From a virus: a stretch of 64,000 nt of DNA. Positions 5,607-37,256 of this stretch are shown here, piece by piece. The DNA is taken from the IMG/VR virus record IMGVR_UViG_3300033571_022960, positions 1 to 64,000 of that record; one strand, written 5' to 3'. Every line of letters starts with the position of its first letter. The stretch's first letter is position 1. Made by a program: the position numbers and the translations under genes. The notes beneath the pieces were generated by a model. The model made no database searches. It was not told where the DNA came from and was given only the letters and a program-made list of their open reading frames with translations.

Positions 5607-8600
5607 TAAAATAAATCAAATATTAGGGAAATATGGAATTACTTTATCTTTGAAAGAAATTTTACAAAGATGGAATGAATCACATAGAGGTTATCATAAT
5701 ATTGAACATTTAAAGGATTTATTAAGACAAATTGGTAAAATCAATTCAAAAGAAAAGGAATTATTGGTTTTAATTTCACTTTTCCATGATATTATATATG
5801 AACCAAAAAATTCTGATAATGAAGAACAAAGTGCAAAATTTTTAATTAATAATGTTAAAGAAGTAACAGAAGATATTAAAAAAGTTTATCAATCAATAAT
5901 AGATACAAAAACACATAAATCATCAAACGAATTATCAGAAATATTTAACAAAATGGATATGAATATTGTAACAAGAAATTTTGATGAATTATTAAAGTGG
6001 GAACAAGGAATACGAAAAGAATATTCAGTTTTTTCTGATGAAGATTATAAAAAAGGAAGAATTAAATTTTTAACATCATTATTAAATGATTATCCTGAAA
6101 ATAAGGAAAATTTGATGAAATTAATTGATTATGTTGGTGGTTTAAATGAAGGATTGAGTGATAAGATTAAATCTCGTGCAAAACAACAAGAGATTCAATT
6201 AAAACAATATATTGATAATATTGACATAAATTCATATTTTGAAGATTCTCCGACAATAAAAGAAGAAAATTACAATAAATTAAAGAAGTTAATTAATAAC
6301 TTCCCAAACGAAGATTTGATATATAAAATTTTAAAAGATACGGATAAAAAATATAGAAAACAAATTAATTATTTATTTGAAGAATTTGCATATATAATTG
6401 GTGCAGAAAAAATTCAAGAATTTATTATTTACTTTATAAATGAAATGAAAGATGATTTGAATAATTATTCAATTGATAAAATAACAAGTAGAAGTATATG
6501 GTCAGATTTGGATAATAAATTAATTTTGAATAAATTAAAAAAATATAAAGATTCAAAATTAGTTGATGAAATTTATAATAAAAATTTTAGATATTACAAG
6601 AAATTTAAAACTATTAATGAAAATTTAAATCTTAAATCTCGTGCAAGTGAACAAGAAAAACAAATGAAACAATATGTTGATAATATTGATTTAAAAAATC
6701 TTTTAGAAAATGATTTGGATTCAGTTAAATTAAGGGAATTATTAGATAAATTCCCAAATCAGTATATGGTTGATAAAATTATAAATGATTTACCAAATGA
6801 ATTAAATAGGGTATTAAATTATGTAATTGGAAGAATTTATAATTATTCTGATGGTGAAAATACTTTATTAAAATTAATTAATAAATTAGGGGATAAATTG
6901 AATAAATATGGGGTTGGGACTTTAATAGATTTAACTTATTCACATTCACCCATTGAATTTTTTCCACAGTTAAACAAAGAAAAAATATATAATGAAATAA
7001 AAAAATATAAAGGAGAAGAATTTTTTAATGATATTTTTGAAAATAATTATTATGTTAGAAAAGAAGAATTGGACAAATGGATAAAAAAACAAAATGAAAA
7101 AAAAATTAAAGAATCATTAAATCTAAAATCTCGTGCAAGTGAGCAGGAAAAACAAAGGGAAGAATATATAAAAAACATTTTAAACAAACCTATTGAAGAT
7201 ATAACATATACTGATTTAAAATTATTAGATGATGAAAATATAGTTTCTTTATTTTACAAAATAAAAGAAAAATATGGTAATGAATTTGATGTTTTTTTGT
7301 TAAAATCTCAAATATATTGGAAAAAAAGTTATATTAAAATTTACAATAAAGAAAATGAAATATTAAATCTAACAATTTCACCTTTTAATTTATTATTTAA
7401 AGGAAATCCTATAAATACGATTGGTCATGGTTTAAAACTTATAAAAGGTAATTCTTTAAATGAAAGTTCAGAATCTAGAGAAGAACAATTTAAAATATTT
7501 GCAAAGAAAGTTGCAAAAAAAATGGGAATTCCTGAACCTCAATATCTTGATAGTGGTTTTTTCGGTTCTGCGTTTATAATAGATAATGATAGAATATTAA
7601 AAATAACAACTGATAAAAGTGAGGCATTAAATGCAAATAAAATAAAAAATAAAACCACACATTTTATTGCAAAAGTATTTGATGTTAGGGGATTTAAATT
7701 TAATGATAAAGAATATTTTTTTATTATATTGGAAAAAGTTAAAACAGATTTTGAATTTTTATATGGGATAATTGAAAATTTAATTTCTTGGTTTGATGAA
7801 AATTATGATGAAGATTTTGTTACATACATAAGTGAAGGTGAATTTAAAGATTTAAAACAACTGGAAAATAAATTATATAATGATAATAAACAACTATATA
7901 ATTTCTTCACAAATTTTGTTGAATTAAAAAAAGAATTAATGAAGTATAATATAACTTCCGCAGATTTTATAAATGCATCAAATTTGGGTTTCAGAGGTAA
8001 AAGAGTTGTTGCGTTTGATTTAGGAATTTCTGATGATAATGGTGATATTGAAAATGTTGATTTATTTGAGAATTTAAATTTAAAAAGTCGTGCAAGTGAA
8101 CAAGAAAAACAAAGAAAGAAATATATTAATAATATATTAAATAACAAAAATTTGGAAGATTTAACTTCTATTGATATAAGTAATTTAAAAAATTTATTAT
8201 CAATGGATGAATTTAATGATTTAATTGTTGGTTATTTAAAAACAACGATTGATAAACATTTTTTTGGTAAAGAAGATTATGAAAGTAAAATATCTACTGA
8301 TGCATTTGGATTTGATAATTTAAAAATGAAATTTAAATCAAGAAATAATCTATCTAATAAAATTAATATATCCATTGGTTTTGATAATATTAAAAATAAA
8401 CTTTATGTTCATAAATTTGATGGTATTGGTATAGATAATGGTAGGTACTTTAATAAATTAAAAGAATTAATTGATTATGTTATTAATGACCATAGAAAAC
8501 CTGTATATGAATCTTTAAATCTTGTTTCTCGTGCAAATCAACAAGAAGAACAAAGAAATGATTATATAAGAAAAGAAGGTATAAATGATTATACAATTAC

Positions 8601-33746: not shown

Positions 33747-34151
33747 ATGAAATTTGAAGAAATCTTTAACGAAACAGACAATCTTTTTAAGGAAGTATTA
33801 GAAAAAACATCAATACCAAAATTTGTGAAATTTAAGGTTGTTGGATGTCAAGAACAAAAAGAAATTTATAAATTATCAAAAACAAATCCTTTAGTACACT
33901 ATATTACTGGAATTGATATTTTAATTACTTTAAATGAGGATATTTTTTCACAACTTAATGATTTGCAACAAAAGGTTGTATTACAAGAATGTCTTGCACA
34001 AGTATATTATGATATGGATAACGATAAATTAAAATTATTAAAACCTGATGTTAGTACTTTTTCTAGAATATTGGAACAATATGGTGTTAAAGAATACATG
34101 GAATTAAAAGAAGTTATTTCTGCTATTCAGAATCAGAAGGAGGAAAAATAG
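33747..34151 (+). CDS. Phage metallopeptidase-like fold, HExxH apparently lost
   Basis: ILITLNEDIF...QQKVVLQECLAQV...KPDVSTFSRILEQYG. Confidence 0.5.
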   Translation: MKFEEIFNETDNLFKEVLEKTSIPKFVKFKVVGCQEQKEIYKLSKTNPLVHYITGIDILITLNEDIFSQLNDLQQKVVLQECLAQVYYDMDNDKLKLLKPDVSTFSRILEQYGVKEYMELKEVISAIQNQKEEK

Positions 34152-34192
34152 TATCTTGAATAGATATGAAAAATATAGAATTTAGAGAACTG

Positions 34193-34210
34193 ATACACCT
34201 TGTTAGGTGC
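34193..34210 (+). mobile_element. Right half of an attC-like site (arm-TT-GTTAGGT)
   Basis: ATACACC-TT-GTTAGGTGC has the same arm end as the 34612 site; no left arm found. Confidence 0.6.
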
Positions 34211-34235
34211 AGTAAATTTTTAAAAGAAAAACAAA

Positions 34236-34361
34236 ATGGGCAGAAAATTAACAAGTTATAATGGTGAAGATTGTATCTATACACCAAGAGAAATGGCAAA
34301 GGCTATTGTAGAAAAGTTAAATCCACAAGGAATTATATTAGAACCTTTTAATCGGAATTAA
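34236..34361 (+). pseudogene. Truncated DNA methyltransferase fragment
   Basis: 41 aa MGRKLTSYNGEDCIYTPREMAKAIVEKLNPQGIILEPF, stopping inside the SAM-binding motif. Confidence 0.6.
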
Positions 34362-34372
34362 AATTTAATAAA

Positions 34373-34609
34373 ATGAGAAAATACAGAATTAGAGAAGAAA
34401 AGTTTGAAGATGGTAGAAGTGAATTTATACCTCAATTTGAAGAAGATGGTCAATTTCATGATTTCTTTTATTTATCAGGATTAAATAAAGATAGACCACC
34501 AATGATTTCAAGACGTTTTAAAACTTTTGAGGGTGCGAAGAGTGAAATTGACAACGATAAGTTAAAATCAATGAAACCAATTGAGGTAAAAATTCACGAT
34601 GTAGATTAA
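34373..34609 (+). CDS. Cassette-borne hypothetical protein
   Basis: 78 aa; stop lies 2 nt before the attC-like site. Confidence 0.7.
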   Translation: MRKYRIREEKFEDGRSEFIPQFEEDGQFHDFFYLSGLNKDRPPMISRRFKTFEGAKSEIDNDKLKSMKPIEVKIHDVD

Positions 34610-34611
34610 AT

Positions 34612-34712
34612 TGTGTATAACGGATGGGTGTATGAGAAGGTTTGCTTAGATGAACTTTCAAATTAACTACAACTGATGATAGCAAACTTTCTTATACACC
34701 TTGTTATACACA
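34612..34712. mobile_element. attC-like site 1
   Basis: TGTGTATAAC-GGATG-20 nt arm (34627-34646)...arm (34681-34700)-TT-GTTATACACA. Confidence 0.8.
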
Positions 34713-34773
34713 GTACGGTTTATTAAGGTAGAATGTTGATACGAAGAAAGAATAAAACTTTTTAAAAATGTGA

Positions 34774-34781
34774 ATATTTAT
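34774..34781 (+). promoter_or_regulatory. ATATTTAT motif inside cassette A
   Basis: 23 nt upstream of 34805. Confidence 0.5.
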
Positions 34782-34804
34782 ATATAAAATAAAAACATAA
34801 AACT

Positions 34805-35143
34805 ATGAGTACAGAAATAAGACAAATGATTGATAAGGTTAAAAATTTTAAACAATTTCTTAATGAACAACGTGATGTTTCATTAAGAAATGATATATGT
34901 AAAATAATTGATGAATTTACAAATAAATATGGTAAAACATTAGCGGCACATTCTCATATTAAACGTGTTGAAAATGATGCGTTAGGAATACTTGCTGAAA
35001 AAATAGATAATTTTTTGAATTACGGTGATTATAGAAAAATATGGTCAATCTTAAATGATTTCACAAAAAATGATGCACTATTTGATGATAATAATATGGG
35101 ATTAAGTGAAACTATATTAGATAAATTAAACTTGGGTAGATAA
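34805..35143 (+). CDS. Cassette A protein with head-cargo-type leader
   Basis: MSTEIRQMIDKVKNFKQFLNE|QRD..., 112 aa. Confidence 0.75.
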   Translation: MSTEIRQMIDKVKNFKQFLNEQRDVSLRNDICKIIDEFTNKYGKTLAAHSHIKRVENDALGILAEKIDNFLNYGDYRKIWSILNDFTKNDALFDDNNMGLSETILDKLNLGR

Positions 35144-35194
35144 TTTTTAAAAAGTTTTTATCACAAATGTTAAATCGAAGTACTTTGGTAGCAT

Positions 35195-35253
35195 TGTGTA
35201 TAACGGCTGCAAATAAAACATCGTTTTAATGTGTTTTATTTGTTGTTATAAGT
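35195..35253. mobile_element. attC-like site 2
   Basis: TGTGTATAAC-GGCTG-CAAATAAAACA...TGTTTTATTTG-TT-GTTATAAGT. Confidence 0.8.
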
Positions 35254-35290
35254 TGTATTATTTTTGTTTTACCTTATAAAAAATTAAATT

Positions 35291-35566
35291 ATGGAAAAAA
35301 TTGTAGAAAAAAAGAAATTATCTTGGAATATTGAACGTACAGAGCTTCAAGGATTCAATTGTAAATACAATTATAAATTTTCAACACCACAATGGTTAGA
35401 AAGTGTTGATAATCCAGAGTATTTTGGGATTTCACACAATGATATGAAAGAAAAAGTTATTGAAAATTTAGTTAGTGAATTTAGAATAGCGTTAAACAAT
35501 GTTATATTTGGAGACCCTGCTGGTAGAGAATATGTGGAACATTTAGAAAATTCAAAACAAAAATAA
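35291..35566 (+). CDS. Cassette B hypothetical protein
   Basis: 91 aa between sites 2 and 3. Confidence 0.75.
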   Translation: MEKIVEKKKLSWNIERTELQGFNCKYNYKFSTPQWLESVDNPEYFGISHNDMKEKVIENLVSEFRIALNNVIFGDPAGREYVEHLENSKQK

Positions 35567-35570
35567 TATT

Positions 35571-35667
35571 ACTTATAACGCTTGGCAATATATGTAGTTG
35601 CCTTGTAGGAATTTAAAAATTAGTATAAACCTTAATAGGCAATTACATATATTGCTTGTTAGCAAAC
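35571..35667. mobile_element. attC-like site 3
   Basis: ACTTATAAC-GCTTG-19 nt arm (35585-35603)...arm (35637-35655)-TT-GTTAGCAAAC. Confidence 0.8.
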
Positions 35668-35675
35668 GTTCCTTT

Positions 35676-35963
35676 ATGAGTGAGATTATTAAAAAGTTAG
35701 AAGAAAATCAGTTTCAAACTGTTAAAAAATCAAATGTAAAATGTCCAATATGTGATGGTGATTTATACACTGTTGATAATTGGATGATGGTAGTTATGGA
35801 TGGTAATACTGTTTATCATTGTGAAAATGTTGAAGAACATAAATTTTGGAATCATCCGTTTGAAGATAATAACATTTTACATTTGAATAAAAATGCAAGT
35901 GAAACTGATTGGACAACAGAGCAAGATTATAAGTTGGTAGATGGTTCTTGGAATGTTTGCTAA
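35676..35963 (+). CDS. Cassette C protein, Zn-ribbon-like (CPIC...C..H)
   Basis: ATG 8 nt after the GTT core; stop TAA lies inside the inverse core GTTTGCTAAC (35955-35964). Confidence 0.75.
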   Translation: MSEIIKKLEENQFQTVKKSNVKCPICDGDLYTVDNWMMVVMDGNTVYHCENVEEHKFWNHPFEDNNILHLNKNASETDWTTEQDYKLVDGSWNVC

Positions 35964-36084
35964 CTATTGTATATATCTAACTACCCATAACTAATTGATT
36001 TTCAATATGAAAGAAACTAACTATTACGAAATTTGATTTTCTAAGGAATTATTCTTATATTTAAATATCTTACTTATTATTGGA

Positions 36085-36092
36085 ATATTTAT
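36085..36092 (+). promoter_or_regulatory. ATATTTAT motif
   Basis: 18 nt upstream of 36111. Confidence 0.5.
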
Positions 36093-36110
36093 AATAAACC
36101 ATTATCCAAA

Positions 36111-36641
36111 ATGAGTAAATTATTTGAAACCTTAAAAATTAAAAAACTCATGGGAATCATACTAGAAAATGAGGAACTTGATAGATTGTTGGATAAAATA
36201 TCTGAATTAGGTATGGAATCATTATCTAATGAAGAAAAAAAATATCTTTATTCATTAAATAATCCTGATGAAGAAAAAGAAGAATTTAATTTTGAAGAAG
36301 ATAAGTATATAGAAAATCATTATAATGATACAATTTCTTTAATGAAACAACTGGGTTATAATAAAGATAATTGGAATCTTTCAATAGAAAAAGATGATAA
36401 AGGTAGGGAAATACCAATATTTTCATCAGTTACAGAAAAAATAATAATTGCACCTTATTGGAATAATAAAAAAATGATTTTAGTATCATCTTTTGATAAA
36501 AGATATTATTTTACAGAACCTATGGGTGTTAATTTGGAAACAATAGGTGATTTAAAGGGTTGGATTATAACAGAATTTTTTGATTCACTTGTTCCTGAAT
36601 TAATAGATAGATTTGAGGAAAGATTTTACGTTAGAGTTTAG
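36111..36641 (+). CDS. Hypothetical protein with head-cargo-type leader
   Basis: MSKLFETLKIKKLMGIILE|NEELDRLLDKISELGMESLS. Confidence 0.7.
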   Translation: MSKLFETLKIKKLMGIILENEELDRLLDKISELGMESLSNEEKKYLYSLNNPDEEKEEFNFEEDKYIENHYNDTISLMKQLGYNKDNWNLSIEKDDKGREIPIFSSVTEKIIIAPYWNNKKMILVSSFDKRYYFTEPMGVNLETIGDLKGWIITEFFDSLVPELIDRFEERFYVRV

Positions 36642-36644
36642 TTT

Positions 36645-37256
36645 ATGTTATCAAACGGTAAAAAAGTTTTATTAAAAATGGTTCAAGATAAGAATCTGTT
36701 AGAACAAAATTCTCAATATACAGATGAAGAAATAATGAATCTAAAATCAATATATTCTTTAGATAAAGATTTTTGCATATCAATTTTTAAAGAACTTTTT
36801 AATAATGAAACTGATAAAGAATCAATTAAACGTTTTCTTATAATTGATTTTGAAGAATCACTTAAAAATTTTATAAGTAAATTAAATAATCCTGGATATG
36901 AGGAAATATTTTTTATTTATTTGGAAGATAAAATAATTGGTTATTGCTCATTTTTTCCTTATAGATTCTCAAAAGATTGGAAATGGTCAAATGACCTTGA
37001 AATGGGTATTTTTATTAAAAATGAATATAGAGGTCAAGGAATTGGAGAAAGTGTCTTAAAACACCTTGAAAATGATTATATTAACCCTTTTTATTCTGAT
37101 TTAAATAAAAATATTAGAAGTGGGAAGAAATTAATTCTTGCACCAACATTCGATAATCCTTCGATTAAACTTTATGAACGTCTTGGATTTAAAAAAGTTG
37201 ATGATAAACAATATAATAATGATGGGTTATTTAGAATGGAAAAAATATTGGATTAA
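36645..37256 (+). CDS. GNAT family N-acetyltransferase
   Basis: IFIKNEYRGQGIG acetyl-CoA motif; NPSIKLYERLGF. Confidence 0.88.
   Translation: MLSNGKKVLLKMVQDKNLLEQNSQYTDEEIMNLKSIYSLDKDFCISIFKELFNNETDKESIKRFLIIDFEESLKNFISKLNNPGYEEIFFIYLEDKIIGYCSFFPYRFSKDWKWSNDLEMGIFIKNEYRGQGIGESVLKHLENDYINPFYSDLNKNIRSGKKLILAPTFDNPSIKLYERLGFKKVDDKQYNNDGLFRMEKILD

Follow-up and report, generated by a model that had tools for sequence, protein, structure and literature searches.

A Probable Integron-Like Cassette Array in a Large T4-Like Phage, Ending in a Stump of a Recombinase Gene

Introduction

Integrons are regarded as bacterial, and recently also as archaeal, devices in which the recombination of hairpin sites depends on a domain specific to the IntI integrase. 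Could a phage possess a gene-capture platform of this kind with an enzyme of another type? The question is raised by a locus in the IMG/VR virus record IMGVR_UViG_3300033571_022960, the first 64 kb of which (64,000 nucleotides, here called the window) were analysed and found to contain single small genes alternating with imperfect palindromes. The record is 133,435 bp in length with a G+C content of 24% and a CheckV completeness of 41%, and because it encodes a T4-type portal, a tail sheath, a family-B DNA polymerase and a T4-type prohead protease, it was taken to be a fragment of a large T4-like myovirus. An original prediction, made from the sequence alone, had described an integron-like array of gene cassettes at this locus, and all of its coordinates were found to be correct. 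Based on comparison with other phages, we consider it likely, with good confidence, that positions 34152–36035 represent the cassette array of a phage-borne, integron-like gene-capture platform which has lost its own recombinase gene.

Cassettes With Complementary Ends

The region contains three intact hairpin sites (S1, S2 and S3) and one truncated site (S0). The intact sites bound three whole cassettes (A, B and C), each with a single open reading frame (ORF) and with complementary ends, and the ORFs of 112, 91 and 95 amino acids (aa), all on the + strand, are separated by the three imperfect hairpins. A unit is composed of a spacer, a hairpin, a 5' core of the form GTTA(T/G)x, one small ORF and a 3' core of the form x'(A/C)TAAC. 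In cassette A, GTTATACACA (34703–34712) is the exact complement of TGTGTATAAC (35195–35204), with 10 of 10 positions paired. The cores of cassette B (35245–35270 and 35554–35579) are complementary at 24 of 26 positions (92%); the prediction had recognized this complementarity, with a length of 21 nt that proved too short. In cassette C, GTTAGCAAACGTT (35658–35670) pairs with AATGTTTGCTAAC (35952–35964) at 12 of 13 positions, the odd position being a G:T pair, and the stop codon TAA of the ORF (35961–35963) lies within the 3' core. The predicted arrangement of co-oriented single ORFs, three imperfect palindromes and cores complementary within the cassette is thus borne out. The cores complement each other within the unit and not with their array neighbors, which is the footprint to be expected of a unit that was once circular and had one continuous hairpin.

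This property extends to the family of sites to which those of the window belong. For 117 non-redundant pairs of neighboring sites from related phages, 14 positions were compared per pair. At least 12 of the 14 were paired in 45% of the comparisons between the two ends of one cassette. The corresponding values were 1.8% when both ends came from a single site and 2.4% when pairs were drawn at random. The proposal that array sites are hybrids with mismatched outer ends is therefore valid family-wide. Insertion of the hairpins into a palindromic ATAAC^GTTAT target (caret, insertion point) was also considered and was rejected, as a site's own cores are no more complementary than random pairs.

Structure and Strand of the Hairpin Sites

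The sites share a geometry in which (A/C)TAAC is followed by a bulge of 3 nt that G:T pairs close, then by a stem-loop that covaries and by TTGTTA. The arms of S1 (34627–34646 and 34681–34700) are 20 nt long and 90% paired with both mismatches being G:T, those of S2 (35210–35220 and 35232–35242) are paired at 11 of 11 positions, and those of S3 (35585–35603 and 35637–35655) are 19 nt long and 95% paired. When folded as single-stranded DNA and compared with shuffled sequences, S1 gave a z score of -7.8 and S2 and S3 each gave -4.0. The + strand folds better than the - strand at both S1 (-22 versus -17 kcal/mol) and S2 (-10.5 versus -8.3 kcal/mol).

A scan of the whole 133,435-bp record for the pattern AAC-N5-stem...stem-TT-GTT returned four matches, these being the three window sites, all within 1 kb, and one 98% copy of S1; relaxing the spacers added only one further true site, which is located in a second array (see below). 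To collect the site family itself, IMG/VR was searched with the motif of the 5' core and the hits were scanned for structure, which gave 68 sites versus 6 in a reversed-sequence control. Its members form co-oriented arrays of 3–7 sites in many phage contigs of 24–33% G+C. In a covariation test of the 46-nt hairpin class (alignment A1), all 154 cells were paired and 9 of the 11 stem pairs were altered on both sides, a result equaled by none of 500 shuffles. The consensus of 208 non-redundant sites reads A-T-T-R-N-N-T-(A/C)-T-AAC, G-K-Y-Y-G, stem, TT and GTT-A-(T/G), with an invariant TA at stem positions 5–6. The first and last G of the spacer pair with the two T's, leaving the 3-nt bulge. The spacing is non-canonical, as had been predicted. 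Among non-Watson-Crick pairs, G:T greatly outnumbers A:C both in the stems (270 versus 14) and in the cores (83 versus 5), which argues that the + strand is under selection to fold. This strand is the sense strand of both the cassette ORFs and the recombinase described below.

The hairpins fall into discrete length classes of approximately 46, 77, 86 and 123 nt, with the 46-nt class having an invariant loop, TCGTTTTAATG. A long hairpin in locus L041 (the site downstream of position 2400) includes two GGTTCGA(T/C)TCC stretches that resemble tRNA T-arms.

The Associated Recombinase and Its Docking Site

A tyrosine recombinase of 267–268 aa is encoded by two of the five large array-bearing records, and in one locus (L004) its gene starts 58 nt beyond the last cassette. 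Using this protein as the query, 80 loci were obtained from IMG/VR. On the strand of the recombinase these have 195 sites, compared with 7 on the opposite strand and 6 in the control; almost all of the 195 are situated upstream of the recombinase gene and are co-oriented, in arrays of up to 11. The scan of the full genome that the original prediction had proposed yielded the three window sites and the second array, and relatives have phage sites accompanied by an Xer/IntI-like recombinase. A conserved site with the consensus xTAAC-TAnnn-TATAT occurs in approximately 60 loci, 30–90 nt upstream of the recombinase start and after the last cassette. By its position this is a docking site of the attI type, adjoining the recombinase gene and forming the probable insertion point of cassettes.

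The recombinase matches PF00589 (E 1e-37), and its R, K, HxxR, H and Y catalytic residues are visible in the alignment. Its best NCBIfam model is XerA/"integron integrase" at 184–190 bits, under the cut-off, and its best solved structure is XerA of P. abyssi (4a8e, E 2.5e-38). On TIGR02249 it scores 151–170 bits in two stretches, the cut-off being 265. Residues 17–182 align with residues 14–183 of VchIntIA (2a3v) and residues 211–266 with residues 260–315. Approximately 48 residues of the region 184–259 of VchIntIA, which we take to be the location of the integron-specific insertion, are missing, and the family recombinase accordingly lacks the additional domain that is specific to integron integrases of the IntI type.

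In the window, the array terminates in a site that fits the attI-like consensus. Positions 35960–36035 are identical to positions 7960–8035 of locus L080 (100% over 76 nt), where the shared stretch leads into a full-length recombinase gene starting MKETNYYEIC, and the similarity of the window to this intact gene stops after 36035 (alignment A2). L080 is otherwise non-syntenic with this genome, and the identity of the attI-like site and recombinase start in such phages suggests a recent transfer of the platform end. The alignment indicates that a recombinase gene formerly stood at the end of the window array and has since been deleted down to nine codons. The original prediction correctly held that the window lacks a tyrosine recombinase, with this stump alone remaining and zero matches to PF00589 in the record. 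It had also placed the integrase elsewhere, in the genome or in the host. An outside supply would indeed be needed, but the gene itself appears to have once been at the end of the array.

Crossover Position and Exchange of Cassettes

The attI-like site and recombinase start are 96–100% identical in 12 pairs of loci whose adjacent cassettes are unrelated. In all 12, including L080 versus the window, identity ends 4–6 nt to the left of the AAC end. The Polaribacter phages Freya_1, Freya_6 and Freya_10, which are from one host, differ in the cassettes that directly precede the recombinase gene. A 4.9-kb block of approximately 12 small ORFs in Freya_10 is absent from Freya_1 and has AAC at both bounds: shared sequence restarts exactly at AAC^ACCCC (caret, joint) and the left joint reads ...TTTACAAC^, followed by a hairpin. 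The original description of the Freya phages mentions only an integrase and possible temperateness (PMC8776804). The comparison of cassette order among strains put forward in the original prediction could be made for these isolates, which differ in cassettes and have joints at AAC, and not for the phage of the window, for which no close relative was found.

Among site pairs with the same hairpin that share one flank only, it is the downstream flank that is shared in 17 cases and the upstream flank in 1, and the hairpin appears to have a tendency to move together with the ORF downstream. Given the joints and this linkage, the unit is best read as spacer-hairpin-core-ORF-core, cut in the AAC of the 5' arm of the folded strand, which would place the crossover within (T)AAC, on the 5' side of the hairpin. 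The prediction had assigned integration to a point between G and TT of GTT; a crossover there, on the 3' side of the hairpin, is rejected by the 12 of 12 platform pairs, the Freya joints and the flank linkage of 17 versus 1. IntI cuts the folded bottom strand of attC at the corresponding AAC position. A strict linkage of each hairpin to one flank was also rejected, since most same-hairpin pairs share neither flank and loci L036 and L037 differ within the 5' core and the 5' untranslated region (UTR).

In the mechanism that we propose, the recombinase would bind the folded + strand at the core helix, the 3-nt bulge with its two G:T pairs and the stem base with its invariant TA. It would then cleave in the AAC of the 5' arm, and a single strand would be exchanged, the partner being either the attI-like site or a further hairpin site; replication would resolve the product, as in integrons and in CTX phage integration. 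With exchange at the attI-like site, new cassettes would thus enter next to the recombinase gene. Both arrays of this genome would move cassettes only with a recombinase supplied in trans, whose source could be either the 59% of the genome that is unsequenced or another phage infecting the same cell. The phage's ordinary homologous recombination, acting on shared hairpin modules, also shuffles cassettes.

Features of the Window Array

The features of the array are collected in Table 1. Four features of this genome were absent from the original prediction, namely S0, the attI-like site, the recombinase stump and the second array, at 131.9–133.4 kb.

Table 1. Features of the cassette array, in positions of the window.
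Feature	Position	Strand	Details
Site remnant S0	34190..34214	+	3' half of hairpin (GATACACC), TT and GTTAGGTGCAG core remain
DNA methyltransferase cassette fragment, 41 codons	34236..34361	+	phrog_799, E 0.005, weak; profile 210–241/458
78-aa ORF of cassette with deleted 5' end	34373..34609	+	3' core ATTGTGTATAAC at 34610–34621
Cassette A, 583 nt	34622..35204	+	Spacer and hairpin S1 34622–34702; ORF 34805–35143 (112 aa)
Cassette A cores	5' core 34703–34714; 3' core 35193–35204	+	
Cassette B, 375 nt	35205..35579	+	Hairpin S2 35205–35244 (46-nt class, loop TCGTTTTAATG); ORF 35291–35566 (91 aa)
Cassette C, 385 nt	35580..35964	+	Hairpin S3 35580–35657; ORF 35676–35963 (95 aa, Cys/His-rich)
attI-like docking site	35962..36006	+	AAC, TATTG, then TATATATCTAACTACCCATAAC...
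Tyrosine recombinase gene stump	36007..36035	+	9 codons (MKETNYYEI), then stop

The platform in the window is decayed at both ends. S0, which has 80% identity over 25 nt with the 3' half of S1 and lacks the 5' arm, is the truncated left edge of the array, 40 nt past the stop codon of a metallopeptidase gene. The methyltransferase fragment that follows appears to have been joined to the next (78-aa) cassette through a deletion. A homolog of this cassette in locus L018 has its own hairpin and a GTTATACACAG core; as similarity to it begins only at 34347, the hairpin and 5' core are missing in the window.

No confident function was obtained from Pfam or PHROGs for cassettes A, B and C, with only weak PHROG matches for cassette C. 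The S1 hairpin, core, 5' UTR and first 21 codons of ORF A form one conserved block that is present in at least 10 other arrays. The 65 nt ahead of the 3' core of cassette A (35140–35204), reading ...AAATCGAAG.AC....GTAGCATTGTGTATAAC, recur with 77–92% identity at the 3' ends of unrelated cassettes (L049/L051, L027, L004, L077, L026 and L062). The ends of cassette B (35200–35296 and 35543–35579) are approximately 95% identical to positions 7649–7746 and 7891–7927 of locus L064, with no BLAST match between the middle of cassette B (247 nt) and that of L064 (145 nt); by this comparison, either the ORF was exchanged within constant ends or it diverged very fast. An ORF for a GNAT acetyltransferase is located at 36645–37256, 600 nt past the recombinase stump.

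The second array lies on the minus strand and reaches the contig end (record G000, 131890–133435; locus L001, 11890–13436). It comprises the 98% copy of S1 (133017–133103, minus), a 143-aa ORF, a 47-nt hairpin with the same loop as S2 (TCGTTTTAATG) and a different stem, and a 93-aa ORF whose ends are complementary over approximately 22 nt. It terminates in an 80-nt sequence in common with positions 35958–36035 of the window, which include the attI-like site, and its own recombinase stump consists of approximately 13 codons and a frameshift.

Cassette Cargo and a Shared Leader

The 126 non-redundant cassette ORFs collected from relatives have a median length of approximately 89 aa, and more than 90% of them have no Pfam family. 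Those that could be annotated include two DNA methylases, GNATs, RNA ligases, YopX and a phosphatase. In this the cargo resembles that of integrons, which likewise consists mostly of small ORFs of unknown function.

A leader of 21 residues (34805–34867), MSTEIRQMIDKVKNFKQFLNE, opens ORF A. In 14 other loci, at least 17 cassette ORFs carry this leader in front of bodies that are unrelated, and it always ends in (L/I/V)-N-E. In T4, the prohead protease cleaves after L/I-x-E and internal proteins have capsid-targeting leaders with such sites. The end of the leader resembles a T4 capsid-targeting sequence or prohead-protease site, and a prohead protease of the Peptidase_S77 family is encoded at 102635–103111 of the genome.

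Evidence Against and Alternative Explanations

Several observations weigh against an integron-like platform at this locus. The excision circles and recombination events that it supposes are read from sequence comparison. A DNA match to the array region was not found in the phage reference collection, nor was a relative found when IMG/VR was searched with both flanking genes (the metallopeptidase and a DUF6576 ORF) or when metagenome contigs were searched with the flanking metallopeptidase; the exact 26-nt attI pattern also had zero matches in metagenome contigs. As no close relative of this phage was found, the window array could not be compared between strains. Within the family, 1095 of the 1126 same-hairpin site pairs share neither flank, and some breakpoints between related arrays occur inside cores or the 5' UTR, off the AAC, so homologous recombination must also contribute. 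The folded strand is the mRNA strand, and the G:U-compatible pairing could partly reflect an RNA function. Finally, neither the 133-kb record, itself 41% complete, nor a 243-kb record rated 100% complete that does have sites (G003, the record of locus L028) contains a match to PF00589; from the latter, arrays without a recombinase may be common. This complete record includes a cassette whose 5' core, UTR and leader resemble those of cassette A.

The alternative that survives best, and which we nevertheless consider improbable, is that the hairpins serve regulation at the RNA or DNA level, for example as terminators, processing sites or promoter-stem-loops, and are shuffled only by general homologous recombination in the manner of the promoter-stem-loops (PeSL) of T4-type phages, with the neighboring recombinase being a lysogeny integrase unrelated to them. 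PeSL shuffling and mini-circles have been documented in T4-type phages (PMC2839356, PMC4122927), and the likeness is considerable: the phage is T4-like, and in both cases the hyperplastic regions of such myoviruses have small, non-essential ORFs that are separated by conserved stem-loop modules, which promote gene shuffling. The folded strand is also the sense strand, one hairpin module occurs with many unrelated flanks, some breakpoints are off the core and arrays exist without any recombinase. However, homologous recombination would not predict a complementarity that is present within units and absent within sites, and neither the joints at 4–6 nt from AAC in 12 of 12 platform pairs nor the strand-specific clustering (195 versus 7) directly upstream of one recombinase family in otherwise unrelated phages would be predicted. 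PeSL consist of a sigma-70 promoter and terminator motifs, and they have no dedicated recombinase, docking site or end-to-end complementarity of units. The sigma-70-like early promoter and terminator stem-loop of a PeSL were not seen at positions 33900–36300, which contain zero terminator-like sites or T-runs and 16 promoter-like matches versus 19.3 expected by chance. No Rfam family matches the hairpins, which gave only sub-threshold look-alikes of microRNA precursors of the kind produced by generic long hairpins.

A second alternative is that the array is a fragment of a bacterial integron acquired from the host, a CALIN (cluster of attC sites lacking an integron integrase), whose attC sites are served by the host IntI. 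Applying IntegronFinder and HattCI to 10,705 phage genomes, Qi et al. (2023; PMC9892861) obtained 17 CALINs in phages, and in that of the Bacteroidota phage P12002L, which infects Polaribacter, one site called as attC was recombined by IntI1 in E. coli. The geometry described here recurs in P12002L: five such sites flank its DNA methyltransferase genes on the minus strand (locus L120, 32224–32924 and 38036–39244), the cores around gp54 are complementary to each other, and these sites appear to be the CALIN reported in that work. The window array is like those CALINs in being an attC-like array in a virulent phage without an adjoining recombinase, and by content it is one, with three intact sites and one truncated site within 1.5 kb (at least two are required) and no integrase. 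The AAC and GTT core triplets are also common to attC. The published arrays were treated as bacterial integron components and tested with IntI1, whereas the array of the window has its own attI-like site and recombinase stump; a phage-encoded Xer-type enzyme or attI platform is not described in PMC9892861, where the term "Xer" occurs 0 times. A host origin is made highly improbable by the arrays of approximately 60 loci, which adjoin a phage-encoded Xer-like enzyme and not IntI, by the lack in this enzyme of the approximately 48 residues in the 184–259 region of VchIntIA, by cores that fit RYYYAAC/GTTRRRY only partly, by the location of the ORFs on the folded strand, and by the hairpin modules and attI-like sites that phages have in common at 90–100% identity.

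That each ORF with its inverted terminal cores is a mini-transposon, resembling a miniature inverted-repeat transposable element (MITE) or an insertion sequence (IS), which inserts beside hairpins is barely credible: the units are flanked by 12–26-nt inverted repeats ending GTTA...TAAC, but past 5 nt these differ among units and yet covary within the unit, with G:T pairs, which argues for base pairing rather than a transposase binding site, and no target-site duplications were seen, a transposase is absent, the associated enzyme is a tyrosine recombinase and the units occur only in co-oriented arrays.

Relationship to Integrons and to Xer-Dependent Elements

The platform proposed here shares with integrons, above all the sedentary chromosomal ones, a tyrosine recombinase gene, an adjoining docking site and an array of cassettes that mostly contain a single ORF and have one orientation. 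In both cases imperfectly paired hairpins serve as the sites, with AAC/GTT cores, loops that vary and a spacer or bulge left unpaired, and in both the array sites are hybrids, the ends of each cassette being mutually complementary, as was found for cassettes A, B and C and for the family. One strand folds, with the crossover probably in the AAC of its 5' arm; the same strand encodes the recombinase, whose transcription leads away from the array. The phage enzyme differs in being 267 aa in length and nearest to XerA/XerC/XerD, and the spacer differs in being a 3-nt bulge closed by G:T pairs. The cassettes of integrons are oriented away from intI and are expressed from Pc, whereas the phage ORFs are on the folded strand, pointing towards the recombinase and all co-oriented with it, and therefore a Pc-type promoter at attI cannot drive them. 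With the folded strand as the reference, only the inverted ORFs distinguish the topology from that of a canonical integron. The phage cores, N-N-T-(A/C)-T-AAC and GTT-A-(T/G)-(A/G), fit the attC consensus RYYYAAC/GTTRRRY only in part, while the hairpin, unpaired spacer, invariant AAC/GTT and strand asymmetry are all present; the sites of the window belong to the phage site family and not to the canonical attC family. The carriers are also different, these being phages, including T4-like jumbo phages of lytic type.

In integrative mobile elements exploiting Xer (IMEX), such as CTX phage, the host XerCD acts at the chromosomal dif site and the whole phage genome is integrated. In this case too an enzyme of the Xer family acts on a one-strand hairpin, one strand is exchanged and replication resolves the product. 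The difference is that the enzyme of the present system would belong to the phage, and that the DNA it moves within phage genomes would be cassettes of one gene each. A search of full-text literature did not find a description of a phage-encoded hairpin-cassette platform, the nearest work being that of Qi et al. (2023). The intact system is available in cultured phages, namely Polaribacter phage Freya and Cellulophaga phage Ingeline.

Significance

A wider interpretation may be offered tentatively, as one that could well prove wrong taken as a whole. In it, large lytic-type phages, probably of Bacteroidota, would own a minimal integron whose enzyme, Xer-like and devoid of the IntI insertion, recombines the sense strand in its folded form. 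The exchangeable cargo would be directed against host defenses, being made up of DNA methylases and of small leader-bearing proteins that the leader would send to the capsid for injection with the DNA. Arrays without a recombinase would trade cassettes in trans at co-infection, making the cassette pool a common good of the phage community.

If the integron-like platform itself is real, hairpin-cassette capture has evolved or persisted without the IntI-specific domain, and a plain Xer-type enzyme combined with the opposite gene orientation can follow the same logic as an integron. The "hyperplastic" regions of large phages, which are rich in ORFans, would then have a concrete mechanism behind them, and the platform would also define a pool of small, quickly exchanged phage genes, which would be a natural place in which to search for anti-defense functions.

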